Below are positions 1,712 through 35,818 of a DNA stretch of 39,986 bases, piece after piece (positions within the stretch are counted from its first letter, which is position 1; the number at the start of each line of letters is the position of its first letter). Under the pieces are notes generated by a model. That model ran no database searches. It saw only the letters and a list, made by a program, of their open reading frames with translations, and was not told where the DNA came from. Location: NCBI GenBank assembly GCA_040902285.1, contig JBBDXP010000009.1, positions 1 through 39,986 of the forward strand, read 5' to 3'. Position numbers and translations under genes: made by a program. This DNA comes from Candidatus Spechtbacterales bacterium (GTDB lineage: Bacteria > Patescibacteriota > Minisyncoccia > Spechtbacterales > 2-12-FULL-38-22).

Positions 1712-1796
1712 GCCGCGGTGGTGGAATTGGTTTACACAGCTGACTTAAAATCAGTGCCCGAAAGGGTTGAGGGTTCGAGTCCCTCCCGCGGCACCA
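1712..1796 (+). tRNA. tRNA-Leu(TAA), type II with long variable arm, CCA encoded
   Basis: Manual cloverleaf: acceptor gccgcgg/ccgcggc, anticodon loop cttaaaa (anticodon TAA), long variable arm, T-loop ttcgagt, 3' gcacca. Confidence 0.85.
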
Positions 1797-1984
1797 CGAT
1801 CACGCTTGTGCGTGGTCGAAATTGAACGAAGTGAAATTTTGTGACGGGGGAAGCAAAGCAATCTGTTTTGCTTTGCGCGGGACTCGAAAGGCGGACTGAC
1901 CCCGCCGCAGACGGGGGAGGGAGCCCGGGCAGGAAGTGCTTAGCGATGACGAGCGAAGCGAGGCAGAGCTTAGCAACTTGACGC

Positions 1985-2007
1985 CGAGTCCCTCCCGCGG
2001 CACCACG
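1985..2007 (+). repeat. 23-nt direct repeat of the tRNA-Leu(TAA) 3' end, followed by a GC hairpin
   Basis: cgagtccctcccgcggcaccacg at 1776-1798 is repeated exactly at 1985-2007. Both copies are followed by a short GC-rich hairpin (cacgcttgtgcgtg / cggccacgcctgggcgtggccg). Confidence 0.8.
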
Positions 2008-2033
2008 GCCACGCCTGGGCGTGGCCGAATCAT

Positions 2034-2072
2034 GCGCTCGTAGCTCAACTGGTTAGAGCACACGGCTTATAC
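2034..2072 (+). pseudogene. 5' half (acceptor to anticodon loop) of a tRNA with a cttatac anticodon loop, truncated
   Basis: gcgctcg-ta-gctcaactggttagagc-a-cacgg-cttatac forms a perfect acceptor 5' strand, D-arm, anticodon 5' stem and loop. The sequence then departs from any tRNA 3' half. Confidence 0.6.
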
Positions 2073-2177
2073 ACGAGGATAGTGAGCGAAAAGAAAGGTT
2101 TACTTTCTTTTCCGAACGACGCAGTGTATATAAAATATAAATGGCAGCGAGGAAGAAATAGGAGTGTGCGCGTATAT

Positions 2178-2251
2178 GCGCGTGTAGCTCAGTTGGTTAG
2201 AGCACGGAGCTTATACCTCCGCGGTCCTTGGTTCGAGTCCAAGCACGCGCA
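2178..2251 (+). tRNA. tRNA-Ile(TAT)
   Basis: Manual cloverleaf: gcgcgtg/cacgcgc acceptor, D-loop agttggtta, anticodon stem cggag/ctccg with loop cttatac (anticodon TAT), T-loop ttcgagt. The tRNA is flanked by a 12-nt complementary leader and trailer (ggagtgtgcgcg ... cgcgcacactcc). Confidence 0.75.
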
Positions 2252-2292
2252 CACTCCTATTTCGACCGAGTGAACCATTTATATAAAATATA

Positions 2293-2328
2293 TCCGTGCG
2301 GTTCCAGGTTCAAGTCCTGGCGGGCGCA
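2293..2328 (+). pseudogene. 3' half of a tRNA that can pair with the 5' half at 2034-2072
   Basis: ccgtg-cggtt-ccagg-ttcaagt-cctgg-cgggcgc-a. The ccgtg segment pairs with cacgg of the 5' half, and cgggcgc pairs with gcgctcg through one G-U wobble. Confidence 0.55.
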
Positions 2329-2348
2329 CAGTAATATAATTACCATAT

Positions 2349-2423
2349 GCCTGGGTAGCTCAGTGGTAGAGCAGTGGCCTGAAGAGCCTCGTGTCGGGTG
2401 TTCAATTCACCCCCCAGGCACCA
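2349..2423 (+). tRNA. tRNA-Phe(GAA), CCA encoded
   Basis: gcctggg/cccaggc acceptor, anticodon loop ctgaaga, T-loop ttcaatt, 3' a-cca. Confidence 0.85.
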
Positions 2424-2428
2424 CACAT

Positions 2429-2502
2429 GGGCGCTTAGCTCAGTTGGCTAGAGCGACTCGTTTACACCGAGTAGGTCGGGGGTTCGAGCCCCTCAGCGCC
2501 CA
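2429..2502 (+). tRNA. tRNA-Val(TAC)
   Basis: gggcgct/agcgccc acceptor, anticodon stem actcg/cgagt with loop tttacac, T-loop ttcgagc. Confidence 0.85.
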
Positions 2503-2705
2503 CAAATCACATAGTGATTTTGGGCGTGGGGGCGAGAACCCAAGAAAGGGGTCGGGAAAACATTTGTTTTCCCGCCTGCGTGGCCGAAGCCACTTCGTCG
2601 AGGCGAAGGCCCGTGGCGGAACAATTAAAACCGAGGGGCTTCGGCCGTGAGCTCAGCCGAACGGTTTTAAGGAGCGAAGCGACGGGTTCTACGAACGCAG
2701 TGAGG

Positions 2706-2724
2706 GAGCCCCTCAGCGCCCACA
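2706..2724 (+). repeat. 19-nt direct repeat of the tRNA-Val 3' end
   Basis: gagcccctcagcgcccaca at 2486-2504 is repeated at 2706-2724, ~220 bp downstream. The intervening sequence is GC-rich with several UUCG/GAAG-type tetraloop hairpins. Confidence 0.8.
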
Positions 2725-2732
2725 GCAAAATC

Positions 2733-2803
2733 GCGGGTGTAGTATAGTGGTAATACACCACCTTGCCATGGTGGAGCCGAGGGTTCGATTCCCTTCACCC
2801 GCT
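2733..2803 (+). tRNA. tRNA-Gly(GCC)
   Basis: gcgggtg/cacccgc acceptor, anticodon stem ccacc/ggtgg with loop ttgccat, T-loop ttcgatt. The 3' end cccgctcaaa recurs at ~2851-2860 within a pair of small hairpins. Confidence 0.85.
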
Positions 2804-2921
2804 CAAAATTATGAAATAATTTTGAGCGAGGCTCGCTCATCTTCGATGAGCGGCCCGCTCAAATTGCAAAATAGCACATTGTGTGCTATTTTATTATTAG
2901 CACATTCAAAGGAGTAAATAG

Positions 2922-3113
2922 GTGGAAGAAAAAGCAAAAGACGGCTGCTCGCATGCATGTACTTGCGAATGTCACAAGAACGATAGTGGAGCCAAACATA
3001 TAGTTTCGTGTTGCTTTGAATGTGAAAGATGTCACCAGCAGATATCTGAAATGTCTGCTAGCAAACACTTTGCCCTTTGCCACCGTTTGTTCTTTGTTTT
3101 TCCACCGTACTAG
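2922..3113 (+). CDS. Hypothetical small Cys/His-rich protein (63 aa, GTG start)
   Basis: A GGAG RBS lies 8 nt upstream of the GTG. The product has 11 Cys and 6 His in 63 aa, arranged in CxC, CxxC and CC motifs. A palindrome (aatagcacattgtgtgctatt) plus a direct half-site repeat sit just upstream. Confidence 0.35.
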   Translation: MEEKAKDGCSHACTCECHKNDSGAKHIVSCCFECERCHQQISEMSASKHFALCHRLFFVFPPY

Positions 3114-3150
3114 AAAGGAGGAGCCGTGGATAATACGCAGCTAAAACAAA

Positions 3151-3176
3151 AAGCCGGATAAAACCGGCTTTTATCG
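3151..3176 (+). terminator. Rho-independent terminator
   Basis: aagccgg-ataaaa-ccggctt followed by tttat. Confidence 0.6.
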
Positions 3177-3241
3177 TATCTTGATTTTATTGTGTTGTTG
3201 GGATATTATTATGCTCAGTTATTTTGTTGCGGGAGAGGTAA

Positions 3242-3425: not shown

Positions 3426-4474
<1,049 letters not shown>

Positions 4475-14841: not shown

Positions 14842-15213
14842 ATGCTGAACATAAAAAATTTATTTTATACAGTTCTGTTGCTTGTTTTAGTTGTTTCGGC
14901 CAATTCCGCGGATGCCGTTGTAGAAATGAACGGCGGAGGAGGAGGATCGGGGGGAACCACAATAAGATTGCCCAATCCTCTTAAGGCCTCTAATTTTAAC
15001 CAGCTTTTGGAGTCGGTGCTGAACCTGCTTTTGGTTTTTGCCATTCCTCTGTATGCCCTTATGGTGGTTATAGCGGGCTATTATTTTCTTTTCGGGGGGC
15101 AAAATCCGGCAAACAGAGTCAAATCATTGACTATATTTAAATATGCGACCATAGGCCTTGTATTTTTGCTTTTTTCCAGAGCTATTGTTGCACTTATACA
15201 AGGTTCGTTATAA
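14842..15213 (+). CDS. TrbC/VirB2-like pilin-family small membrane protein
   Basis: A signal peptide, a Gly-rich stretch and two C-terminal TM helices with FLFGGQNPANRVK, which is shared with the three downstream paralogs. Confidence 0.55.
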   Translation: MLNIKNLFYTVLLLVLVVSANSADAVVEMNGGGGGSGGTTIRLPNPLKASNFNQLLESVLNLLLVFAIPLYALMVVIAGYYFLFGGQNPANRVKSLTIFKYATIGLVFLLFSRAIVALIQGSL

Positions 15214-15300
15214 AATAAGATTAGGAGATGGGGGTGTGAGATACAAACATCCCTAATTTAAAAAGGTCGTTTTTATTCAAAAAATAAAAACAAAATATTT

Positions 15301-15789
15301 ATGAAAACAAAAACATTAACCAATGTATCAAGAATAGCGACGGTTGCATTTTTGTTGGCAGCGTTTTCCTTAATGCTTGCCGGAAATGTGTTGGCGCACG
15401 GAAACCACAGCGCCACAACAGACAAGTGTTCCTTAAGGGCGACTGTAAGCGCAACCGAGGCGAATGATTTGACCGGAAAGACCGTGGGAACGCACGCACC
15501 AAGCACAACGGGAGGCCTTGACCTCGTGGACCCGAATGTTGCCGGGGATCATGCCCTTATTTGCACATACGGACTTATTAAGTTCGTTACAAATGTTTTG
15601 CTTGTAACGGTGCTTGTGGTTGCGACATTGCTTATCGCTTACGCCGCATTTCTGTTTGTTACAGCGGGCCAGAGCCCGGAAAAAAGAGGCAAAGCACGAG
15701 ATTTTCTTATCTTTGCCATTGTCGGTTTGGTTATAGCAGCGGTAGCAAGCTTGATACCCACCATAGTTCGTGGAATTATCGGAGTGTAA
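15301..15789 (+). CDS. TrbC/VirB2-like pilin-family protein, paralog 1
   Basis: Signal peptide (…LAHG), a ~70-aa exposed region with two Cys, then two TM helices (AAFLFVTAGQSPEKRGKARDF). A terminator hairpin follows. Confidence 0.6.
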   Translation: MKTKTLTNVSRIATVAFLLAAFSLMLAGNVLAHGNHSATTDKCSLRATVSATEANDLTGKTVGTHAPSTTGGLDLVDPNVAGDHALICTYGLIKFVTNVLLVTVLVVATLLIAYAAFLFVTAGQSPEKRGKARDFLIFAIVGLVIAAVASLIPTIVRGIIGV

Positions 15790-15813
15790 TTGCTTTAAGC
15801 GATTCAATCCCAA

Positions 15814-15842
15814 AAACACCCCTTAGCGGGGTGTTTTTGTTA
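15814..15842 (+). terminator. Rho-independent terminator
   Basis: aaacacccc-ttagc-ggggtgttt followed by ttgtt. Confidence 0.7.
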
Positions 15843-15939
15843 TAGGGGTGAAAACGGGGTTGTATTGCAATCAATATTTGTGTAAAATAAAATTATCATT
15901 GATTTTATCGATTTTAAAATACTTATAAGTAAAATAATT

Positions 15940-16425
15940 ATGATAAAAATATTAAAAGCGCCAAAAGCCATTATTGTAACATTTGTTTTAGCGGGAATAC
16001 TTTTTGGTACGGTTCCCGGTGTGTTGGCTCATGGAACACACACAACGTCGTTAGCAGGCAGCGGGTATTGTCTGTTAAGAGTTACCGTTTCTGCCGGTGA
16101 CGCGCAACAACTTACGGGCAGATCTGTGGGTACGCACCCCGCCGGTTACAGGCTTAGTTTAACTGAGCCAACCATAGGTGGAGAACACGCGCTGATATGC
16201 GCCTACGGCCTTATCGGATTTATAACAAATGTGCTCCTTATATTTATACTTGTGGTTGCTGCGGCGTTTATCGCTTATGCCGCGTTTCTGTTTGTTACAG
16301 CGGGCGCCAATCCGGCCACCCGGACGAAAGCCAGGGACTTTTTCCTGTATGCCGTTATAGGTTTGATTGTGGCTCTTTTGGCAAGCCAGATCCCCACCCT
16401 TGTCAGGGGAATTCTCGGAGTATAA
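15940..16425 (+). CDS. TrbC/VirB2-like pilin-family protein, paralog 2 (divergent exposed region)
   Basis: Same architecture as paralog 1. The TM region is conserved and the exposed region has diverged (YCLLRVTVSAGDAQQLTGRSVGTHPAGYRLSL...). Confidence 0.6.
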   Translation: MIKILKAPKAIIVTFVLAGILFGTVPGVLAHGTHTTSLAGSGYCLLRVTVSAGDAQQLTGRSVGTHPAGYRLSLTEPTIGGEHALICAYGLIGFITNVLLIFILVVAAAFIAYAAFLFVTAGANPATRTKARDFFLYAVIGLIVALLASQIPTLVRGILGV

Positions 16426-16451
16426 AAATTAATTATTAAATAAAAATTAAC

Positions 16452-16928
16452 ATGACAAAAATTACGAAAATATCAAGAATTGTCATTGTTGCCTTCGCAC
16501 TTGCCGGTCTTCTTGTGGCACCAAGCGTGTTGGCGCACGGAAGCCACACCGCTACAACAAACAAGTGTTCCTTAAGGGCGACTGTAAGCGCAACCGAGGC
16601 GAATGATTTGACCGGAAAGACCGTGGGAACGCACGCACCAAGCACAACGGGAGGCCTTGACCTCGTGGATCCGAATGTTGCCGGGGATCATGCCCTTATT
16701 TGCACATACGGATTTATTAAGTTCGTTACAAATGTTTTGCTTGTAGTTATTCTTGTTGTGGCATCTCTGCTTATCGCTTATGCCGCATTTCTGTTTGTTA
16801 CAGCCGGCGGGAATCCGGCCAATAGAGAGAAAGCGCGTTCCTATCTTATATTTGCGGTTATAGGCCTTGTTGTTGCTGTTGTGGCAGCGCTTATTCCAAC
16901 CATTGTCAGAGGAATCATCGGGGTATAA
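16452..16928 (+). CDS. TrbC/VirB2-like pilin-family protein, paralog 3
   Basis: Carries a ~190-bp tract nearly identical to paralog 1 (16558-16745 versus 15421-15608). Confidence 0.6.
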   Translation: MTKITKISRIVIVAFALAGLLVAPSVLAHGSHTATTNKCSLRATVSATEANDLTGKTVGTHAPSTTGGLDLVDPNVAGDHALICTYGFIKFVTNVLLVVILVVASLLIAYAAFLFVTAGGNPANREKARSYLIFAVIGLVVAVVAALIPTIVRGIIGV

Positions 16929-25571: not shown

Positions 25572-25721
25572 TTTTTGTAGATTACTATATTGTTGTATGC
25601 TTAACAACTGAACAAAGTTGACTTATGACTATTTTTCAGTAAAATATATAGGTGGCACTGGTCCCATCGTCTTGCAGCCTGCTCTTTGTAATCCAAAATC
25701 AATTTGACGGAGCGAATTTTA

Positions 25722-25800
25722 AAAAGATTCGAGGCCTGAGGAGCGAAACGCACATATGTGCATGAGCGACGAAAACAAAGAATCTTTTTAAAATTCGCCC
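25722..25800. repeat. 19-bp perfect inverted repeat forming a long hairpin with a nested palindrome
   Basis: gcgaattttaaaaagattc (25725-25743) pairs with gaatctttttaaaattcgc (25778-25796). The loop contains gcacatatgtgc. Confidence 0.7.
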
Positions 25801-25832
25801 GCCCAACCCCAACTATGAATAATTAACTTTGC

Positions 25833-25907
25833 GGTCCCATCGTCTAGTCCGGCCTAGGACGCCAGGTTTTCATCCTGGTAACACGGGTTCGAATCCCGTT
25901 GGGACCG
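25833..25907 (+). tRNA. tRNA-Glu(TTC)
   Basis: ggtccca/tgggacc acceptor, 3-bp D stem gtc/gac with loop tagtccggcctag (the E. coli Glu-like architecture), anticodon loop ttttcat, T-loop ttcgaat. The tRNA is flanked by a perfect 15-nt complementary leader and trailer (aataattaactttgc / gcaaagttaattatt). Confidence 0.85.
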
Positions 25908-26055
25908 CAAAGTTAATTATTTGAGATTTTAGGGAAACAAAAAAGCACGCTATCTGCCGCGTTGCTCCTCCTCGAAATAGCGCTATTGCTATTATTCCTT
26001 CGTCGTTGCGCCTTGCATCTAGCATACTTTTTTGTTTTCAAATTGATTTTAGATT

Positions 26056-26131
26056 GCAAAGAGCAGGCTAAGGCCTAGGACGCCAGGTTTTCATCCTGGT
26101 AACACGGGTTCGAATCCCGTTGGCTCTGCCA
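26056..26131 (+). pseudogene. tRNA-Glu-like pseudogene: 52-nt exact copy of the tRNA-Glu 3' portion joined to a non-matching 5' side
   Basis: 26072-26123 is identical to 25850-25901 of tRNA-Glu. The acceptor 3' strand (tggctct-g-cca) does not pair with the upstream sequence. The inverted repeat caaagagcaggct (26057-26069) matches agcctgctctttg (25676-25688), which sits next to a 13-nt tRNA-Glu 5' fragment (25660-25672). Confidence 0.6.
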
Positions 26132-27908: not shown

Positions 27909-27946
27909 TAACCTAGATTGATAGTACCTTGAAAAAGGAGGACGAA

Positions 27947-29842
27947 GTGGCCGAAGAACCTCAAATACAAAATACTCAAAAGAATTCTAAAGAATTCGAT
28001 GTACTTATCGCAATATCCACAGAACTGCGGGAAAAAGCGAACGGTATGTTAAGTGAGGATTTTGTCCGTCATATAGACGATATAACAGAAAAAGCGGATG
28101 AACTTGAGACCGCGCGAAAACTGCAGGCGCAGGAGGCGTCGAGGGATATCCAGCAAAATAAGCTGGCCTATCTTAATAAAATAAGAGAACTTAGCATAGA
28201 ACTAAATCAACTTAGCCGAATGCTGAGCGCTCTTAAGGAACAGCCCCCGCTGATGTCTGCCAAATTTGTTAGATTTGTCCGTTATCATGAAATAGAAGAA
28301 TACGGCAAGAAGGTAAAGATTCCAGTTGTGGATATTGTAAATTCCAGCGGTTCCAACGCGCGCGTTTTTGTGCATCCGGAGCTGGATGTTTCCAATGTTA
28401 AGTATGGACAGCGCGTTCTTGTAAGCGCGGGCAACATGACTATAATGGAAATTTTGCAAGAATTCGAGGTTATAGGACAAGAAGCATATGTCGAGGCTCT
28501 CTTGGAACCCGATTTTGAAGGTAAGCGTGTTTTGGTATCGGAAGGCCAGCTGGACATGAAAATAGTGGCGCATCTGTCCTCTTCCGTGGAAGATAAAGAA
28601 ATGGAAGAAGGCACTAGGGTTCTTGTAGATACAAAGACATCTTTGGTCGTGGAAGTGCTTCCCGAGCATGAGAGCCGCCGTTACATTGTGGGCGAAATCC
28701 CAAATGTCACTTTTTCTGATATCGGAGGCCTGGACGGCATTATCGCGAGGATAGACGAGCATGTTATATGGCCTATAATCTATCCCGATGTGTGGGAAAA
28801 AATAGGATTGGATTCTCCAAAAGGATTTGTGCTTGCCGGCCCGCCGGGTGTGGGCAAAACCATGATTGCCAAGGCGTTGGTAAACTATCTTAATGAAAAA
28901 CTCGAGGAAGTTCATGGCAAACCCGTACAGGGCCGTTTCTTCCACATTGCCGGACCTGAAATTCAAAACAAATATGTGGGCGAGACCGAACGCATTATGC
29001 GCGAGATATTTGCCCAGGCGGCAAAGAATGCTTCTCCGCTAAGCCCCTCCTTGGTATTTTTTGACGAAGCGGACGCGCTTTTCCCAAGACGCGGTTCGGG
29101 AGTCTCCTCCGATGTTGAAAAGACGAATGTTACCCAATTTACAGCCCTTATGGACGGCCTTGAGACCAGGAGCAACATTATAGTTGTTTTGGCGACAAAC
29201 CGCCCCGAACTTTTGGATCCCGCGGTCATACGGCCCGGGCGCTCGGACTTCACTGTGGATGTTCCGCGGCCCAACGAAGAAGCCGCCAAAGCCATTTTTG
29301 CCAAATACATAAGGCCCGAATGGGGGCAGATAAATCCTAAATACGATCAGGAGGTTTATATTCCAAAAGACAAAAAGGGCAATACGCGCGTTGATGACTC
29401 CGGAAGTGATATAAAACTTTACTTCGGACACAAGCCGCAAGAGGTTGTGGATTATCTTATCGCTAAAGCAACAGCGCGCATGTACGATCTGGACAATCCA
29501 AGAAACAAATTTATCAAACTCAAGTTTAGGGATTATTCGGAAAAAACTCTCCGTTACGGCGATTTTGCCTCCGGCGCTATGATTAAAAATATAGTGGATC
29601 GTGCCAAGAGATTTTCCGTTCATGATCATAAGGTTGGAGGTGAAGAACTCGGGATAACTCTCGTACACCTGTACAAAGCCATTGAAGAGGTCTTTTCTGA
29701 GCTTAGGGGTCCTTCCGGAGCCGGCGATTCCAGCACCTGGCTTGAAATAGAAGGCCATGTCCGCGGAAATAACGTTACGGGAATAGAATTTCTATCCAGA
29801 GATGCGGATGATTCTGACGATGATGAAGAGCCCATTTTATAA
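27947..29842 (+). CDS. ARC/Mpa-like (proteasome-associated-ATPase family) AAA ATPase
   Basis: An N-terminal coiled-coil (…LSIELNQLSRMLSALKEQ…) is followed by a tandem OB-fold inter-domain (…NARVFVHPELDVSNVKYGQRVLVSAGNMTIMEIL…). The single AAA module has Walker A GPPGVGKT, KYVGETERIMREIF, and Walker B/arginine finger VVLATNRPELLDPAVIRPGR. The C-terminus …DDEEPIL has no GQYL/HbYX docking motif. Confidence 0.8.
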   Translation: MAEEPQIQNTQKNSKEFDVLIAISTELREKANGMLSEDFVRHIDDITEKADELETARKLQAQEASRDIQQNKLAYLNKIRELSIELNQLSRMLSALKEQPPLMSAKFVRFVRYHEIEEYGKKVKIPVVDIVNSSGSNARVFVHPELDVSNVKYGQRVLVSAGNMTIMEILQEFEVIGQEAYVEALLEPDFEGKRVLVSEGQLDMKIVAHLSSSVEDKEMEEGTRVLVDTKTSLVVEVLPEHESRRYIVGEIPNVTFSDIGGLDGIIARIDEHVIWPIIYPDVWEKIGLDSPKGFVLAGPPGVGKTMIAKALVNYLNEKLEEVHGKPVQGRFFHIAGPEIQNKYVGETERIMREIFAQAAKNASPLSPSLVFFDEADALFPRRGSGVSSDVEKTNVTQFTALMDGLETRSNIIVVLATNRPELLDPAVIRPGRSDFTVDVPRPNEEAAKAIFAKYIRPEWGQINPKYDQEVYIPKDKKGNTRVDDSGSDIKLYFGHKPQEVVDYLIAKATARMYDLDNPRNKFIKLKFRDYSEKTLRYGDFASGAMIKNIVDRAKRFSVHDHKVGGEELGITLVHLYKAIEEVFSELRGPSGAGDSSTWLEIEGHVRGNNVTGIEFLSRDADDSDDDEEPIL

Positions 29843-29859
29843 AATCGCACATTCTTTTG

Positions 29860-29887
29860 ACCCCCGACTGCAAAGCGGGGGTTTTTA
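29860..29887 (+). terminator. Rho-independent terminator
   Basis: acccccg-actgcaaa-gcgggggt followed by ttttatttt. Confidence 0.75.
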
Positions 29888-29898
29888 TTTTAATAAAA

Positions 29899-29927
29899 TT
29901 GACACACGACCGCCAAACGACTATACT
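29899..29927 (+). promoter_or_regulatory. Sigma70-type promoter TTGACA-17-TATACT upstream of the dop-like gene
   Basis: ttgaca cacgaccgccaaacgac tatact. The 5'UTR attagtaccttaaaaaggagg shares the agtacctt(g/a)aaaaaggagg motif with the ARC and Lon-like leaders. Confidence 0.6.
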
Positions 29928-29962
29928 TAGTGCAATTAGTACCTTAAAAAGGAGGCATAAGC

Positions 29963-31579
29963 ATGCCTGACAAGCCGCGCAAGATAATAATTGGCGCTGA
30001 AACCGAATATGGAATATTTGCGACAGAAAACGGCCAAATACTTGATAATGAGGCCTTAGGACTTGTGAGAGAGGCCGAAAATGTAACCAAAGATTTTTTC
30101 CTTCGCCCGCTTGAGGGCATAGAAGATACCGAAGAACATGAAAATCTTGATTCTATGACTGATGAGGATTTTTTGCGCCAACCGGAAAGTTATCAAAGTT
30201 CCGGAGAAAGGCAGAGGCGCGGCCTTACCGGTTTTGTTCTCTCAAACGGATGCAGATTCTATGTTGATATGGGTCATCCGGAGTATTCAATTCCCGAAAC
30301 AACAAATCCCATGGATGCTCTTGTCGCGCAAAAAGCGGGAGACAGGATAGTTGAGCTTTGCAGAAGATTATTTGAGGAAAGATTAAAGAACGAAAATAGG
30401 AATATTTCGATTCGTTTGGATAAAAACAATAGCGACGGTAAAGGGAACAGCTATGCCGCGCACGAAAATTATTCTCTTACCCCCGAAACCTTTACGGAAA
30501 TAACTAATCGTTATGGGTCAAGAGAGTTGGAAGATATTGTGTTGAATTTTTTCACCACGCGCCAGATAGTGACAGGGGCCGGAAAGGTTGGATACGAGAC
30601 AGGAAGACCCGTTCCATACCAAATAAGCCAGCGTGCGGATTTTATTGAAAAGGAAAAAAGCTTAAACACGGTCGAAAAGAGGGGGATAATAAATTTGCGG
30701 GACCATTCCTATGCCGGATACGATGATGTCCGCAGATTGCATGTTATATGCGGAGACGGCAACATGTCCGAATTGTCTCTGTATCTTAAATTCGGCACAA
30801 CAGCGCTTATTTTAATGATGCTTGAAAGCGGATTTATACAGAGCGAAGGAAGTTCTGTTTTGATTCGCATGCAAAATCCCGTCCGCTCGTATAAAAATGT
30901 ATCAAGAGACCTTTCCCTGGGCCACAAGATATTTTTTGAGGACGGTTCTAAAAGGACCGCTTTAGCCATACAGGAGGAATTTTATTCTCTGGCCAAAAAA
31001 TTTACCGATGGAAACGATATTGATCCTATATGGCGCGATGTCGCAGACAAGTGGGAAAAGGTTTTGCACGGTCTTGCCGGGGAAAGAAATTCTGATGAAT
31101 GGGCCGGCAATCTGGACTGGGTTAAAAAAGAAACCATACTCAAACGGCATCAGGAGAAAAAAGGAGTTTCTCCGCTTCATCACACATGCCGCGCCGTGGA
31201 TCTTCAGTACCACAACATAAATCCCGAAAAAAGCATTTATTGGCGCCTGGCTGAAAGAGGAGACATACTTTTGTTTGCCACCAAAGCCGATATAGAGAGG
31301 GCTATTAATGAGCCACCTTCGGACACAAGGGCGTGGTTCAGAGGGCAAACCGTTAAACAGTTTAGAAATGTTCTGGACGGTATCGGCTGGCAATATATTA
31401 AATTTGCCGATAAATACATTTTTATGGGCAATCCATTTTCTGGTTCAAAAGAAGCAGCAGAGAGTATTTTTGCGGGGGTTTCTTCTCCGGAAGAATTTAT
31501 TGAAAGATTGTCGAAAGCAATTGAACGGAAGGAGAGTGGATTGGAGGGCTTTAGTGTCGGAGAAGGGTGGTTGATATAA
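29963..31579 (+). CDS. dop: Pup-ligase-family protein, Dop-like (depupylase/deamidase-type)
   Basis: The N-terminal IIIGAETEYGIF strand (Dop-type E-Y-G) is followed by a ~45-aa insertion before the conserved RFYVDMGHPEYS block, consistent with a Dop loop. The carboxylate-amine-ligase fold is retained at 538 aa. The Dop versus PafA call is an inference. Confidence 0.7.
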   Translation: MPDKPRKIIIGAETEYGIFATENGQILDNEALGLVREAENVTKDFFLRPLEGIEDTEEHENLDSMTDEDFLRQPESYQSSGERQRRGLTGFVLSNGCRFYVDMGHPEYSIPETTNPMDALVAQKAGDRIVELCRRLFEERLKNENRNISIRLDKNNSDGKGNSYAAHENYSLTPETFTEITNRYGSRELEDIVLNFFTTRQIVTGAGKVGYETGRPVPYQISQRADFIEKEKSLNTVEKRGIINLRDHSYAGYDDVRRLHVICGDGNMSELSLYLKFGTTALILMMLESGFIQSEGSSVLIRMQNPVRSYKNVSRDLSLGHKIFFEDGSKRTALAIQEEFYSLAKKFTDGNDIDPIWRDVADKWEKVLHGLAGERNSDEWAGNLDWVKKETILKRHQEKKGVSPLHHTCRAVDLQYHNINPEKSIYWRLAERGDILLFATKADIERAINEPPSDTRAWFRGQTVKQFRNVLDGIGWQYIKFADKYIFMGNPFSGSKEAAESIFAGVSSPEEFIERLSKAIERKESGLEGFSVGEGWLI

Positions 31580-32976
31580 TGAAAGACAGAGCCGTTGGTA
31601 TAGAAAATGAATTTGGCGTAATGCTTAAGGATGATTTTGGCAATTTTAGTTCTCAAGAGAACGAAATGCTGGCCATTAACAGCATTCCTCGTGAAAATTT
31701 GCCTCAAGGGGGTGGAATGTCCAACGGACGTTTCTGGCTTGCCAACGGAGGCAGTGTATACATAGACCTGGGCCATCCGGAATATGCTTCTCCCGAATGT
31801 CTCAGGTTGCGTGATCTGATTGCTGTAAGCCGCGCGGGAGAGAGGATTTGTTCCCGTATGTTCCATTACGCTGTTAGTAATGGAAGGTATTGGCAGCTTT
31901 TTAAGAATAATTTGGAAATTAGCGCCGAAGGAGGAGAAGGAAATTCGTTCGGATGTCATGAAAATTATCTCATTCACGGATATAAGCCGGAAGACGAGGT
32001 CATGCATACGCATCTTCTTCCCTTTCTGATAACTCGGCAGATATTGGACGGAGCGGGATGGTGGGCTTCGGACGGCAGATTTTCATTTTCTCAAAGAGCG
32101 TTGATTTTGGGCACCGTGGCGGCAATGGGTACCACGGAGGGGATAAGCCGTCCCATCATAAATCTTAGAGACGAGCCCCATATACAGAATAGGGAAGGAA
32201 TGAGCAGGTTGCATCTCATTTTGGGCGATGCCAACATGCTGGACTGGGCCTTGTATCTTAAATTCGGTACCACCTCCCTTGTACTGGCCATGCTTGAAGA
32301 AGGCCATATATTCAGGGATACGTGCCAAAATCCCATTGAAGCCATGCGCAGAGTGGCGTTTGATAAGACCGCGCGGAAACGGCTATTGAAATTTAGCGGG
32401 CGCGGGAAAATGAGCGCGCTAGAAGTGCAGGAATTTTACCTTGCCAAAGCCGAAAAATACGTCTCTATAACTGATTTTGCAAGCTACGAAAGCAGATTGG
32501 AAGCGCTCCAAACCGTGTGCATGTGGCGCGAGGCCTTAAATGCGATAAAAAATCGCGATACCGCATGGATGCTCGGACGGCTTGATTGGGCAACAAAGCT
32601 GTATCTTGGAAACAAAGAGTGGTCGAACAAAAAAAATTCGGGCGCTAGTGAAATGGACATCAAAAAACGCGTTGATATTCTTTATCACGCCGTGACCGAC
32701 ACAAGATTGCGCGACCGAATATATGCCAAGTGGCCGAACAGGCAGCTGGTCGGCGGACAGGAAATTGAGTATATGATAAATAATCCCCCACTGGACACCC
32801 GCGCGAGAATAAGGGCGTTGTTTATTGATCTCTGCTCAAAAAAACAATTCGGCACGGATAAGGACATATCTGTGAATTGGTCCAAAATAGTATATAGAGG
32901 CAAGGCGTTTAACTTGGGATACCCTTTAGACAAGGATAATCTCGAGGTTGAGAAACTTATCAGAAATCTCTTGTAA
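31579..32976 (+). CDS. pafA: Pup-ligase-family protein, PafA-like
   Basis: VGIENEFGVM (PafA-type E-F-G) with no loop insertion; SVYIDLGHPEYASPE; 466 aa. Its ATG overlaps the dop-like stop as TAATG, which suggests translational coupling. The track ORF begins at an upstream GTG (31567). Confidence 0.7.
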   Translation: MKDRAVGIENEFGVMLKDDFGNFSSQENEMLAINSIPRENLPQGGGMSNGRFWLANGGSVYIDLGHPEYASPECLRLRDLIAVSRAGERICSRMFHYAVSNGRYWQLFKNNLEISAEGGEGNSFGCHENYLIHGYKPEDEVMHTHLLPFLITRQILDGAGWWASDGRFSFSQRALILGTVAAMGTTEGISRPIINLRDEPHIQNREGMSRLHLILGDANMLDWALYLKFGTTSLVLAMLEEGHIFRDTCQNPIEAMRRVAFDKTARKRLLKFSGRGKMSALEVQEFYLAKAEKYVSITDFASYESRLEALQTVCMWREALNAIKNRDTAWMLGRLDWATKLYLGNKEWSNKKNSGASEMDIKKRVDILYHAVTDTRLRDRIYAKWPNRQLVGGQEIEYMINNPPLDTRARIRALFIDLCSKKQFGTDKDISVNWSKIVYRGKAFNLGYPLDKDNLEVEKLIRNLL

Positions 32977-33035
32977 AATTGTAAAATAATCTGTAATAAT
33001 AAGAGCAAATGCAACCGGAAAGGAGGATTGCCGTG

Positions 33036-33230
33036 CCGCCGCAAGAGCAGATAAGGCCTAATCGCAAAAGGGACGATTCCAGCGAAGACCAGGAATATGT
33101 CCGCAAAGATAAAGATGATGAAGAAGATTCCTCCGAAGAGGAGCTAGACGATGAGGAGCTGAACATCGACGATCTTTTGGAAGAATCAGAAGAACTTACA
33201 AAGAAGTATAAGCAGAAAGGCGGAGAGTAA
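33036..33230 (+). CDS. pup: Prokaryotic ubiquitin-like protein Pup homolog, C-terminal GGE
   Basis: A GAAAGGAGG RBS lies 6 nt before GTG 33036. The 65-aa product is acidic and low-complexity, ending …DDLLEESEELTKKYKQKGGE. This resembles the actinobacterial Pup C-terminus (…DDLLDEIDDVLE…YVQKGGQ/E) that binds Mpa and is ligated by PafA. The track ORF (33009) adds 9 N-terminal residues from an ATG that has no RBS. Confidence 0.75.
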   Translation, partial: PPQEQIRPNRKRDDSSEDQEYVRKDKDDEEDSSEEELDDEELNIDDLLEESEELTKKYKQKGGE

Positions 33231-33241
33231 GCAGTACTTTT

Positions 33242-33266
33242 AGCCCCGTTTTAACGGGGCTTTTTT
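33242..33266 (+). terminator. Rho-independent terminator
   Basis: agccccg-tttta-acggggc followed by tttttt. Confidence 0.75.
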
Positions 33267-33274
33267 ATTGGGGG

Positions 33275-33303
33275 TTGACTCTCATGCCCTAGATATCTAT
33301 AGT
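33275..33303 (+). promoter_or_regulatory. Sigma70-type promoter TTGACT-17-TATAGT (second copy of the module at 27877-27947)
   Basis: ggggttgactctcatgccctagatatctatagttaacctagattgatagtaccttgaaaaaggagg. AGGAGG lies 7 nt before GTG 33344. Confidence 0.65.
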
Positions 33304-33343
33304 TAACCTAGATTGATAGTACCTTGAAAAAGGAGGTGGTATT

Positions 33344-35818
33344 GTGCCTGCCGAAGAAAGAGACGGTATACGGGAGTTAAATCCTGAAGAGCTTTGCCGG
33401 AAATGGCAGCCCGAAGAGTTTAATTCCGAAGTTGAGCCCGATACGGGATTTTCCAACGGAGTTTGGCTGGGTATCAGCCAAGATCGCTTGTTCAAAGCGC
33501 TTGATTTCGGTTTGAGCAGAGACGCACCGGACCATCATATATTTGTTTCTGGAATAACGGGCCCAACGGTTTTGGAGGCCCTTGAGAAGTTTGTTCTGGA
33601 TTTTGAAAACAAGAACACTGGAGAACTGTCCCAGTTGCGGGATTGGTGCTATGTATATAATTTTGACAATCCCCGCAACCCCGTTGCGATTCCTCTGCCC
33701 GCGGGCAGAGGAAAGGTACTGCGCTTTAAGATGAAAAAGAATCTGTCTCGTTTGCAGGATGCCATACCAAATGCTCTCAACAGCGAGAATGTCGCGCAGG
33801 AACATTTGCGGGCGACCAGTGAATTCAATGATTGGTTTTCGGCCGCGCAGGAGAGCACAAGGAAAAGAGCTGCCGAAAACCAAGAGGCGATAGTGGAGTT
33901 CGGTGATTCCGGCTTTGACGTCAACATCATTCCGTGGCGCTATAAGAGTTTGAACGAAGAAGAAAGGGAAGAGCTGGGCAGAACCCTCGCTTCCAAAGAA
34001 AAACAGCGCGACAGGAACACGATAAGCAAATACATGCCCGAGATTATAGCAATACGGAATGAATTTCTCAAAAGAGATGCAAAGTTGCGCGAGGAATTAA
34101 ACCGAATAAATCAAAGTGCCATAAAAGAAGCCATACAAGGGGTGTTTAGAAGTTTGCGCGGAAAACTCAGCGAAAACAGCAGAAGTACCGCTCTTACAAG
34201 ATATATAGACAGCGTTGAGAAATTTGCCACAGAAAATTACCCAATTTTTCTTCAAGGCAAAAATAAAACGGTACCTAGAGTGGCCAAACAGGAGCCTGAC
34301 ATCTTTATTCCCTGGGAAGTAAATGTGTTTGTCGATAACAGCAACGCCAAAGGCCCGCCCGTTGTCATAGAGCTTGATCCGACATTCGAAAACCTTGTCG
34401 GAAGGATTGAAAAAGTGGTAATGGCGGGTGGAATGGTTTCAACGGACCATACCAGAATAGCAGCCGGTTCGCTCGCGCAGGCAAACGGCGGATATCTGCT
34501 TTTGAATATTCGCGATGTTCTTGTGCGGCCGGGAGCTTACGAAGCTCTTAAGAACGCTGTAAAGAATAAAACTCTGGAAATTTCCGAACTCATGTCCGCT
34601 ATGGGTTATGGTTCAATGTCTTCTCTGGATCCGACACCCATTCCGCTTAATCTTAAGCTTGTAGTTACGGGCATTCGAGGTTTGTGGGAGTATCTTTCAC
34701 ATGCGGATCCGGAATTTTCAAGCATATTTAAGATAAAGGCGGATGTAAATCCGGATGTTGATCGCAGTCCCGACGAGGCATCGGCGTGGGCCCGGTGGAT
34801 GACTAAGCAGTATTCCGAACACGGGCTTCTGCCGCTTGAAAACGATGCCATGGGGCGGATAATTGATTACGCTTCGCGTGTTGCCGGTTCCAAAAAGCGT
34901 ATAGCCACTAATTTTGGGCTTTTGCAGGATTTGATGAGCGAATCTTCTTATGTTGCCAAAAAAGAAGGTGCTGAAAGAATAAGCGCCCAACATGTGCGTA
35001 GTGCCATAGCGGACAGAAAATTCCGACTCAGTTTGTATCAGGAACGCCGTCTTAGGAGCATACAAGAAAGCCACACGCTGATAGATGTAGAGGGTGGCGC
35101 GGTTGGTCAAATTAACGGCTTAGTTATTTTTGGGGGCAGGACTGAAGATGCTTGGTTTGGCGGTCCTAGCCGTATAACGGCGCAGGTTTCTATGGGAAAG
35201 CCGGGTTTTATCAATATTCAGCGAGAATCCAAAATGTCCGGACCTTATCTGGATATGGCCGACGCCATAGTCAACCGTTATCTTATGGGTACATATGCTA
35301 AGAAGTATCCCATTGCTTTACAGATAAGCATCGCCTTTGAGCAATCATATGGCGGGGTGGACGGAGACAGTGCCTCTCTCGCGCAGTTGTATGCCACGCT
35401 TTCGGCTGTGGCCGAAGTGCCAATACGCCAGGATGTTGCCATAACGGGTTCTCTTAACCAAAGAGGGGCCGTGCAGGTCATTGGCGGAGTTAACGATAAG
35501 ATAGAGGGATTTTTTGACGCATGCCTTGCCAAAGGCGGGCTTTCGGGAACCCAGGGAGTTATTATTCCCGAAGGCAATGTTTCTGATTTGATGCTTCGCG
35601 AAGATGTGGTTGAAGCTGTCCAAAATGGCAGGTTCCATGTTTGGGCAGTAAGCCATGTGAGCGGAGGTATCAAGATTCTACTGGGTATGCCCGCAGGAGA
35701 GCGTGATAACGAAGGCAAATTCCCCGAAGGTACATTTAACGCGATTGTGGATGAAAAACTGCAAAGTTATGCCCGCAACGCGAAAAACTTCTTTAAAGAT
35801 GAAGAAGCGGAAAAATAA
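33344..35818 (+). CDS. Lon-like (S16 family) serine protease with a degenerate AAA-like domain lacking Walker A (LonC-like)
   Basis: The C-terminal protease domain has DGDSASLAQLYATLSAV (compare the Lon PKDGPSAG catalytic Ser block) and ITGSLNQRGAVQVIGGVNDKIEGF (compare the Lon TGEITLRGRVLPIGGLKEK catalytic Lys block). No GxxxxGK[ST] motif occurs anywhere in the 824 aa. Confidence 0.7.
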   Translation: MPAEERDGIRELNPEELCRKWQPEEFNSEVEPDTGFSNGVWLGISQDRLFKALDFGLSRDAPDHHIFVSGITGPTVLEALEKFVLDFENKNTGELSQLRDWCYVYNFDNPRNPVAIPLPAGRGKVLRFKMKKNLSRLQDAIPNALNSENVAQEHLRATSEFNDWFSAAQESTRKRAAENQEAIVEFGDSGFDVNIIPWRYKSLNEEEREELGRTLASKEKQRDRNTISKYMPEIIAIRNEFLKRDAKLREELNRINQSAIKEAIQGVFRSLRGKLSENSRSTALTRYIDSVEKFATENYPIFLQGKNKTVPRVAKQEPDIFIPWEVNVFVDNSNAKGPPVVIELDPTFENLVGRIEKVVMAGGMVSTDHTRIAAGSLAQANGGYLLLNIRDVLVRPGAYEALKNAVKNKTLEISELMSAMGYGSMSSLDPTPIPLNLKLVVTGIRGLWEYLSHADPEFSSIFKIKADVNPDVDRSPDEASAWARWMTKQYSEHGLLPLENDAMGRIIDYASRVAGSKKRIATNFGLLQDLMSESSYVAKKEGAERISAQHVRSAIADRKFRLSLYQERRLRSIQESHTLIDVEGGAVGQINGLVIFGGRTEDAWFGGPSRITAQVSMGKPGFINIQRESKMSGPYLDMADAIVNRYLMGTYAKKYPIALQISIAFEQSYGGVDGDSASLAQLYATLSAVAEVPIRQDVAITGSLNQRGAVQVIGGVNDKIEGFFDACLAKGGLSGTQGVIIPEGNVSDLMLREDVVEAVQNGRFHVWAVSHVSGGIKILLGMPAGERDNEGKFPEGTFNAIVDEKLQSYARNAKNFFKDEEAEK

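Follow-up and report, generated by a model that had tools for sequence, protein, structure and literature searches.

Structured RNA Blocks Bounded by Duplicated tRNA Segments in and behind tRNA Genes of a Candidatus Spechtbacterales Bacterium

In a 40-kb stretch of DNA (hereafter the window; 39,986 nucleotides (nt), contig JBBDXP010000009.1) from Candidatus Spechtbacterales, a tiny-genome bacterium of the Candidate Phyla Radiation (CPR)/Patescibacteria, the transfer RNA (tRNA) genes for Leu, Val, Gly, Ile and Glu are followed or interrupted by blocks that are bounded by duplicated tRNA segments. The blocks comprise at least three RNA families, namely family 1 behind tRNA-Val, family 2 behind tRNA-Leu and family 3 around tRNA-Glu, with a ~70-nt insert in a tRNA-Ile gene as a fourth element. 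They are insertions relative to close relatives, which lack the Leu and Gly blocks at precise boundaries. One and the same family occupies tRNA genes of differing identity, with a junction in the T-loop that is set by the family. Every module terminates in a duplicate of its host tRNA's 3' strand and holds a complementary stretch that co-varies with the host, and both the sequence and the helices of the modules are under purifying selection. We read the blocks, with a probability of roughly 45%, as protein-free conserved structured RNA modules of about 50–250 nt that are co-transcribed with the tRNAs, close on a tRNA-like, excisable helix and persist by way of the intact tRNA copy.

The comparison includes L075 and L076, two independent assemblies of one species whose tryptophanyl-tRNA synthetase (TrpRS) is 86–87% identical to that of the window (gene at 3461–4474); L080, a region that is the same as L005 (TrpRS identity 67%); L158 (TsaD identity 67%); and L077 and L003, relatives more distant than L075/L076. 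Exact look-ups with the proteins P0005 and P0009 added no tRNA clusters beyond those known. Seven tRNAs were called in the window by ARAGORN and Rfam.

Duplicated tRNA Segments and the Blocks They Bound

The initial annotation, made from the sequence alone, had described intact tRNA genes followed by copies of their own 3' segments. ARAGORN, Rfam and a repeat search bear this out at the Leu, Val, Gly and Glu loci with small corrections of length. The measured offset of the copy is 209 nt for Leu (given as 211), where the exact tRNA part is 21 nt long (given as 23), 220 nt for Val (19/19 identical; given as 222), 56 nt for Gly (10/10; given as ~58), and 221 nt for Glu (52/52; given as 224). By chance, an exact 19-mer is expected to recur within 600 nt at a rate of about 2e-9. 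In each case one intact tRNA copy remains, either with the disrupted segment duplicated or with the whole tRNA inside the insert. Such self-copies were seen only in relatives of this lineage and on one Saccharibacteria contig (64 tRNAs, 1.17 Mb of loci). The Saccharibacteria case is a similar one: its tRNA-Glu(CTC) is followed by a 148-nt block and then by a 19-nt copy that begins in the T-loop.

We regard an artefact of assembly or binning, or a play of chance, as a negligible explanation of these repeats. Two Logan contigs of the source sample SRR27977660, L001 and L160, stop inside the Val block and the Glu locus, respectively; these ends may be cited in favour of an artefact, and they are also consistent with assembly breakage by repeats or with strain-level indels. 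However, the same architectures are present in independent ENA, JGI and NCBI assemblies (L075, L076, L080/L005, L158/L159), and the chance expectation of the repeats is about 1e-9.

The GC-rich and densely structured character that had been ascribed to the blocks is confirmed by measurement. Their GC content is 0.58–0.62 vs. about 0.36–0.46 in the flanks, and they fold much better than shuffled sequences, with z-scores of −5.1, −6.1, −7.1 and −13.0. A uniform spacing of ~210–225 nt, also claimed at first, holds within this genome, where the units measure 209, 220 and 221 nt, and the insert of the outer tRNA-Ile described below likewise measures 221 nt. It does not hold in the relatives, in which the corresponding values are 163, 151, 152, 232 and 167 nt. 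The suggestion of a single family had to be abandoned, as BLAST found no long similarity of the blocks to one another or to the rest of the window; the families became apparent only through related genomes. The GAGCGAA motif is common to all blocks, and 5 of its 10 matches in the window fall within the roughly 1 kb that they occupy. A search of the window blocks with Rfam 15, both at the gathering threshold and at E ≤ 10, returned tRNAs and noise only, so that no block is assigned to a known RNA family.

Families 1 and 2 behind tRNA-Val and tRNA-Leu

Family 1 provides the clearest view of how a block is built. On the plus strand, the intact tRNA-Val(TAC) gene lies at 2429–2503, and its positions 57–76 (2486–2504) form copy 1 of the repeat. 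The family-1 block (2504–2705) opens with the hairpin h0 (2504–2520) and the anti strand TGGGCGTGGGGGC (2521–2533), followed by the 5' strand of helix P2 (2534–2541), the P3 hairpin (2553–2574), a variable domain (2575–2662), the stretch GGAGCGAAGCGAC (2671–2683), the 3' strand of P2 (2684–2690) and the conserved bulge ACGAACGCAGTGAGG (2691–2705). The second copy of this tRNA-Val segment (2706–2724), which begins at G57, is predicted to pair with the anti strand and to close the block. According to RNAalifold, the closing helix between the complementary strand and copy 2 comprises 11–12 bp with covariation and is stacked on a second helix, beyond which there are hairpins and a conserved 15-nt purine-rich bulge. 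A compensatory change is observed in 5 of the 38 pairs.

The Val block is retained in L075/L076. In L076 it is only about 146 nt long; what separates the two species is an indel that takes in an entire hairpin domain, as is typical for structured RNAs. The two genomes are far enough apart for selection to be read from the alignment: the four-fold sites of TrpRS are 47% identical, i.e., essentially saturated, whereas the alignable segments of family 1 are identical at 65/71 and 41/43 positions (92–95%) and tRNA-Val at 72/75. Since the block is 92–95% identical against 47% at four-fold sites, it evolves as slowly as the tRNAs and is held by selection. Moreover, both Val copies change from GAGCC in the window to GAATC in L076, and the anti strand follows from ..GGGGGC to ..GAGGAT. 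A shared architecture under purifying selection in relatives, which the initial annotation had placed in opposition to an integration origin, is therefore largely what the comparison reveals. In L080, a ~215-nt homologue of family 1 stands behind tRNA-Leu(TAA), and it is the Leu 3' strand that is copied at its end. Family 1 keeps a constant junction, as copy 2 starts at G57 (T-loop position 56/57) in the window, in L075/L076 and in L080.

The Leu locus, also on the plus strand, follows the same plan with a different core. The intact tRNA-Leu(TAA) gene (1712–1796; ARAGORN, Rfam) encodes its CCA, and its positions 56–76 (1776–1796) are copy 1. The family-2 block of 188 nt (1797–1984) begins with its own hairpin h0 (1797–1818) and contains three stretches complementary to the tRNA-Leu 3' strand (1840–1850, 1879–1888 and 1912–1922), the second of which, GGGACTCGAA, is complementary to the T-loop and T-stem, as well as the GAGCGAAGCGA motif (1951–1961). 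Copy 2 runs from C56 through CCA (1985–2005, within 1985–2029), and the hairpin that comes after it (2006–2027) is probably the resident trailing hairpin of tRNA-Leu. The full repeat (1776–1820 vs. 1985–2029) is 45 nt long and 89% identical, with an exact tRNA part, CGAGTCCCTCCCGCGGCACCA; the trailing hairpins of the two copies are 79% identical, and their differences include one compensatory pair. In L076, tRNA-Leu is followed by the trailing hairpin only and the family-2 block is absent. In L158, a family-2 homologue lies behind tRNA-Glu and ends in the Glu 3' strand; L158 also shows a tandem array of copy plus block. Here again the junction is constant, with copy 2 starting at C56 (T-loop position 55/56) in both the window and L158, and the change of the anti-T-loop 10-mer from GGGACTCGAA in the window to GGGATTTGAA in L158 exactly compensates that from TTCGAGTCCC to TTCAAATCCC.

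A Mini-Block behind tRNA-Gly

The intact tRNA-Gly(GCC) gene (2733–2804, plus strand; ARAGORN, Rfam) is followed on the same strand by a mini-block of 56 nt (2808–2863), which consists of the anti strand TTTTGAGCG, a UUCG hairpin (2832–2852) and copy 2, CCCGCTCAAA (2854–2863). The repeat, 2798–2807 vs. 2854–2863, is identical at 10/10 positions, and the operon terminator hairpin comes next (2868–2892). In L075/L076 the terminator stands directly after tRNA-Gly and the mini-block is absent, and because of this it can be recognized as a clean insertion flanked by a 10-nt repeat. The comparison of orthologous loci that the initial annotation had proposed thus gives a mixed picture: the Leu and Gly blocks are missing in close relatives, and the Val block is kept. 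The more distant L077 and L003 have compact tRNA clusters without blocks.

The Gly and Leu loci are also where a purely local process would find its arguments, namely the tandem or fold-back duplication of tRNA ends by slippage or template switching, with no mobile module involved. The Gly mini-block is made almost entirely of alternating direct and inverted CCGCTCA, and the Leu block holds three stretches complementary to the tRNA 3' strand. The cores of families 1, 2 and 3, however, are unrelated to tRNA sequence, they are homologous between loci with different host tRNAs, family 3 has free-standing copies, and the blocks are under strong purifying selection. Duplication is very unlikely as a general explanation; it is largely refuted for families 1–3 and possible only for the 56-nt Gly mini-block.

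Family 3 and the Nested tRNA-Glu Genes

The 52-nt copy at the Glu locus had been noticed from the start. The locus is also a nested one, owing to two features missed at that stage, namely a 13-nt copy of the 5' end of tRNA-Glu and an inverted repeat of 32 bp. A promoter-like site (25618–25645) is located upstream. On the plus strand, the leader GGTGGCACT with a 13-nt 5' fragment of the resident, outer tRNA-Glu (25651–25672, the 5' copy being 25660–25672) precedes the family-3 structured RNA (25676–26069; z = −13). Its 32-bp closing helix (25676–25707/26038–26069) surrounds hairpin A (25712–25798) and hairpin C (25935–26037), between which lies the module of the inner, intact tRNA-Glu(TTC) (25833–25908; ARAGORN, Rfam), whose acceptor helix is extended to 25 bp (25818–25842/25897–25921). 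The outer tRNA-Glu resumes with a 3' remnant (26072–26131; 35 bits as tRNA) in which 52 nt are identical to the inner tRNA (25851–25902 vs. 26072–26123, 52/52) and are followed by a divergent acceptor strand and GCCA. If joined, the outer pieces would show two mismatches in the acceptor stem and a short D-loop; they look like remnants. In L156 there is a simple tRNA-Glu gene with the same leader and trailer (GGTGGCGCT ... GCCAC) as the outer pieces of the window, which identifies the nested module as an insertion into a resident tRNA-Glu. The whole tRNA-Glu segment is inverted with respect to its TsaD and ClpX-like neighbours between the window (25651–26131) and L156 (2854–2931).

Family 3 adjoins a 29-nt tRNA-Glu 5' fragment in L158 and occurs without any tRNA in L002 and L081. 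The free-standing copy of L081 (7197–7438, minus strand) is the second on its contig, which also bears a tRNA-Glu-linked copy (L159), and its closing helix has a 3' strand, TTTGAATCCCGCACTCT, that is similar to the 3' strand of a T-loop/T-stem/acceptor. In the hairpins of the family, 8 of 32 and 12 of 34 pairs show a compensatory change among three sequences. By eye, hairpin A has purine-rich loops (GAGGAGC, GCGACGAA) and hairpin C has pyrimidine-rich ones (GCTCCTC, TTCGTCG) complementary to them, so that the two hairpins may form a loop-loop interaction (25735–25775 and 25960–26010).

The initial annotation had explained the copies by site-specific integration into tRNA 3' ends. The blocks would then be attL/attR scars or miniature non-autonomous derivatives, a tyrosine integrase would act in trans, and the repeats would be the identity blocks of the attachment (att) sites. 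Much of what is seen is shared with integrative elements at tRNA genes and their cis-mobilisable miniature derivatives, i.e., the direct repeat of a tRNA 3' segment, the tRNA left intact on one side, and the existence of filled and empty sites, here with precise boundaries. The repeats reach the tRNA 3' end from a start in the T-loop (Leu, Val; L028, L080, L158), in the anticodon loop (Ile) or, for Gly, at the acceptor 3' end; these starting points are reportedly the three classical att sublocations of integrases that Williams set out in 2002. The tandem array in L158 and the inversion of the tRNA-Glu segment would fit as well. Of the integration reading, then, the insertions, their recurrence at different tRNAs and the att-like start points stand, whereas the DNA is not decaying and a recombinase is lacking from the genes scanned. 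No tyrosine or serine recombinase or other integrase was found in the 40-kb window (Pfam scan, large open reading frames (ORFs)) or among the called genes around L075, L156 and L158/L159, and the window scan detected no transposase or reverse transcriptase either. Unlike integrative elements, the blocks, which are the whole element, measure just 46–221 nt and are conserved structured RNA under purifying selection, with tRNA-like conservation while silent sites are saturated and with compensatory changes of the RNA type. Integration leaves unexplained the internal strand that is complementary to the tRNA and co-varies with the host (two compensatory changes each in families 1 and 2), the rewriting of attP from Val to Leu, the 5'-fragment duplications and the nested whole tRNAs. 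Viral contigs gave 0 matches to the core patterns of families 1 and 2. Taken together, an att origin appears distinctly unlikely to us. A miniature inverted-repeat element or another transposon with a target-site duplication of fixed length was rejected, given repeat lengths of 10, 19, 21–45 and 52 nt in the window and inverted 'ends' that are tRNA-derived strands.

A tRNA-Ile Gene inside a tRNA-Ile Gene

A second, split tRNA-Ile that encloses an intact one had escaped the original description of the cluster. On the plus strand, the 5' half of the outer tRNA-Ile(TAT) extends through the anticodon loop (2034–2072, with a weak Rfam tRNA match at 2034–2090) and its 3' half lies at 2294–2329; ARAGORN calls the joined halves as tRNA-Ile(TAT). 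The insertion of 221 nt between them (2073–2293) is at position 37/38 or 38/39. It opens with the conserved ~70-nt intron-like element (hairpin 2088–2112, CGAACGACGCAGTG motif 2113–2126) and continues with a module bounded by the 13-nt direct repeats TATATAAAATATA (2127–2139 and 2280–2292), in which the inner intact tRNA-Ile(TAT) is found (2178–2252; ARAGORN, Rfam). The inner gene is wrapped in helices of 19 bp and 18 bp, the former (2155–2173/2245–2263) overlapping its acceptor 3' strand. Downstream of the outer 3' half is tRNA-Phe (2349–2423; ARAGORN, Rfam).

L075/L076 also keep a nested tRNA-Ile, with homologous insert arms. In L076 the insert sits after A37, and the arms around its inner tRNA, 28 nt and 49 nt, are jointly homologous to the contiguous hairpin element that opens the insert of the window, which indicates that the common ancestor carried a ~70-nt insert at 37/38. 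The inner tRNA is placed differently, in the hairpin loop in L076 and in the AT-rich tail, bounded by the 13-nt direct repeat, in the window. Between the outer halves of the window and the tRNA-Ile of L076 there are compensatory changes in the acceptor and anticodon stems, and the anticodon loop forms with the 3' part of the insert a helix that co-varies (UAUACAC/GUGUAUA vs. UAUAAAC/GUUUAUA). These changes and the covarying helix suggest that the interrupted tRNA-Ile is still an RNA under selection. No splicing signature of a known kind that would join the Ile halves was found.

Another reading takes the blocks for true introns of a type not yet described. The mature tRNA would then be built with the downstream copy or from the outer halves, the block would be spliced out, and the complementary strand would align the exons as a guide. 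The outer tRNA-Ile halves form a perfect cloverleaf with compensatory differences from L076, the anticodon loop pairs with the 3' part of the insert in a covarying helix, the insert is at 37/38, and the anti 10-mer of family 2 spans the 55/56 junction. In these respects, as well as in the presence of structured RNA in tRNA loops including 37/38, in the recurrence of one family at the same position of different tRNAs and in the exon-intron pairing, the blocks resemble disrupted tRNA genes (with group I introns, or the archaeal bulge-helix-bulge (BHB), split and permuted forms). Group I introns are common in Patescibacteria tRNAs, where they occur at 35/36 (PMC13011429), and a group I-like one is present in the same cluster in L005. 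There, at ~770–1078, an intron of about 240 nt that looks like group I (GUAGAGACUAG core) breaks tRNA-Phe(GAA) after G34, and ARAGORN misses this tRNA.

Several observations speak against splicing. No group I or group II intron and no small ribozyme was detected by Rfam in the window blocks at E ≤ 10 with permissive filters, the L076 version of family 1 is only about 146 nt long, the intact tRNA is always present without splicing, joining the outer tRNA-Glu pieces would give a tRNA with two acceptor mismatches and a shortened D-loop, and in L158 the 5' fragment has no matching 3' exon after it. In group I introns, the 5' splice site is preceded by U and the intron itself ends in G. Yet the family-1 junction falls after C56, with an intron that would end in G, and that of family 2 after U55, with an end in C; within the repeat, the U-before and G-last rules exclude each other. 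A group I intron was therefore rejected on its missing Intron_gpI match (E ≤ 10), its size and its wrong junction nucleotides. The BHB motif was not found by inspection, and a BHB intron was dismissed, as structure prediction puts the 5' junction within a helix of 7 bp and leaves the 3' junction in a single strand of 10 nt. Position 37/38, that of archaeal/eukaryal-type introns, is one possible reading of the insertion point in the outer tRNA-Ile, and the L076 insert comes after A37. We know of no bacterial splicing endonuclease. In contrast to disrupted tRNA genes of the known kinds, the blocks are neither group I nor group II and lack the BHB motif, their 3' exon is duplicated, so that an intact tRNA is available without splicing, and a complete tRNA can sit inside. 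Introns of a new type are, in our opinion, a decidedly improbable account of the blocks.

Several narrower readings were also discarded. Hammerhead-like (CUGAnGA...GAAA) and K-turn interpretations of the purine-rich motifs, made by eye, failed since no stem II is possible and Rfam lends no support; an RNase P-like reading of AAGAAAGGGGUCGGG, likewise by eye only, was dropped. A reading of the complementary stretches as primer-binding sites of a retroelement was set aside, there being no reverse transcriptase in the window and the Val copy ending in ACA, not ACCA; a route of this kind is speculative.

Proposed Mechanism

The reading that we prefer, of co-transcribed RNA modules closing on a tRNA-like helix, would work as follows. 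Each of the tRNAs is probably single-copy and essential in these genomes, so that only those insertions would survive that leave or bring an intact tRNA; this would give rise to tRNAs trailed by a copy of their 3' end and to tRNAs nested in tRNAs. Co-transcription of the modules with the tRNAs is probable, as we infer from the promoter-like site at the Glu locus, the terminator hairpin after the last copy and the fact that no internal plus-strand terminator is predicted in the tRNA cluster. A promoter scan upstream of the Leu–Gly cluster found none. In the precursor, the module would fold on itself through the anti:copy helix of about 12 bp, equal in length to an acceptor plus T-stem stack, and RNase P and RNase Z or exonucleases would cut it out while sparing the neighbouring tRNAs, in a manner comparable to ends of the type found in transfer-messenger RNA (tmRNA) and mascRNA. 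As for the entry into DNA, candidate routes are a recombinase in trans, homing-type break repair and an RNA-mediated route.

A number of points weigh against this interpretation. Excision by RNase P and RNase Z is purely conjectural. The anti:copy helix sometimes covers the discriminator and part of the CCA/CA tail and has no T-loop, so it does not reproduce a tRNA minihelix faithfully. Copy 1 could be just as good a partner for the anti strand, by way of h0, as in the minimum-free-energy folds of the Leu and Val blocks. A processing role needs no 100% identity of copy 2 to the tRNA and leaves that identity unexplained. The GCGAAGC mini-hairpin is best known as a very stable DNA hairpin, and its recurrence here could indicate a single-stranded DNA intermediate, not an RNA function. 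Finally, each family is represented by only 2–4 independent sequences.

A related proposal keeps the RNA and changes its role. The blocks may be a class, not recognised before, of protein-free mobile, intron-like RNA elements of CPR bacteria, in which an internal guide would find tRNA genes or transcripts by pairing with the 3' strand of the T-arm and acceptor, insertion would take place at a fixed position of the T-loop or anticodon loop, and the displaced tRNA segment or a whole tRNA would be carried along or copied, which would keep the host gene working; exchange or release of tRNA 3' ends by such elements, acting as ribozymes, is conceivable. We hold this to be unlikely.

Among established RNAs, the preferred model has a likeness in tmRNA, YrlA Y-RNA-like RNAs, MALAT1/mascRNA and tRNA-punctuated precursors, with which the blocks share a predicted closing helix of the acceptor plus T-stem type and a probable co-transcription with tRNAs. 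They differ in having no T-loop, in giving no Rfam tmRNA or YrlA match above noise, and in that their tRNA-like strand reproduces the neighbouring tRNA exactly. GOLLD and ROOL are large conserved noncoding RNAs (ncRNAs) of unknown function that are associated with tRNA genes and sometimes embed them. By comparison, the blocks are much smaller, have no Rfam match, are found in chromosomal operons of housekeeping tRNAs in CPR bacteria and have duplicated tRNA fragments at their borders.

Other Features of the Window and Its Relatives

Positions 1–290 of the window form another GC-rich structured stretch (z = −5.75), situated directly 5' of an RluA-like ORF and clipped by the window start. It carries GAGCGAA at 70–76 and has no Rfam match. 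In L076, the orthologue of the RluA-like gene has tRNA-Cys/Val/Leu directly upstream, without a structured block. This stretch is probably a further member of the tRNA-block phenomenon.

In L080, at ~2896–3184 (= L005 ~290–560), a small GIY-YIG-like ORF that contains an in-frame stop lies just upstream of tRNA-Val(GAC), between an 11-nt copy of the 5' end of this tRNA and the inverted repeat CCCTCACATGC/GCATGTGAGGG as its brackets. The duplication is thus on the 5' side and surrounds a possible homing-endonuclease cassette.

The genes of the window are of the housekeeping kind, including FtsH, GyrA, RecG, TsaD, a class I aminoacyl-tRNA synthetase, L19 and Pup ligases (Pfam scan, large ORFs). 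Four tandem small ORFs with T4SS-pilin-like domains, and a Pup-proteasome-type set (Mpa/ARC-like ATPase, two Pup-ligase paralogs) beside a LonC-like protease, are found at 14842–16928 and 27929–35818.

Implications

As far as we are aware, group I and, rarely, group II introns are the only interruptions of bacterial tRNA genes, and integrated elements the only insertions known to flank them. The loci described here represent a third situation, in which conserved structured RNAs of at least three new families lie in or behind tRNA genes and are bounded by duplicated tRNA segments, with a complete tRNA gene nested in an interrupted one at Ile and Glu. Archaeal disrupted tRNAs have been described, and in the literature we found no description of this block architecture. 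Because standard tRNA finders report the intact copy only, the architecture and the RNA families are invisible in CPR annotations, and the repeats may break short-read assemblies. Processing of the modules through their tRNA-like closing helices, if it takes place, would provide compact expression of ncRNAs in minimal genomes. Should RNA guidance make the modules mobile, they would constitute a new kind of selfish element; bacterial 'tRNA-in-tRNA' genes and tRNA intervening sequences other than group I would then be real biology.

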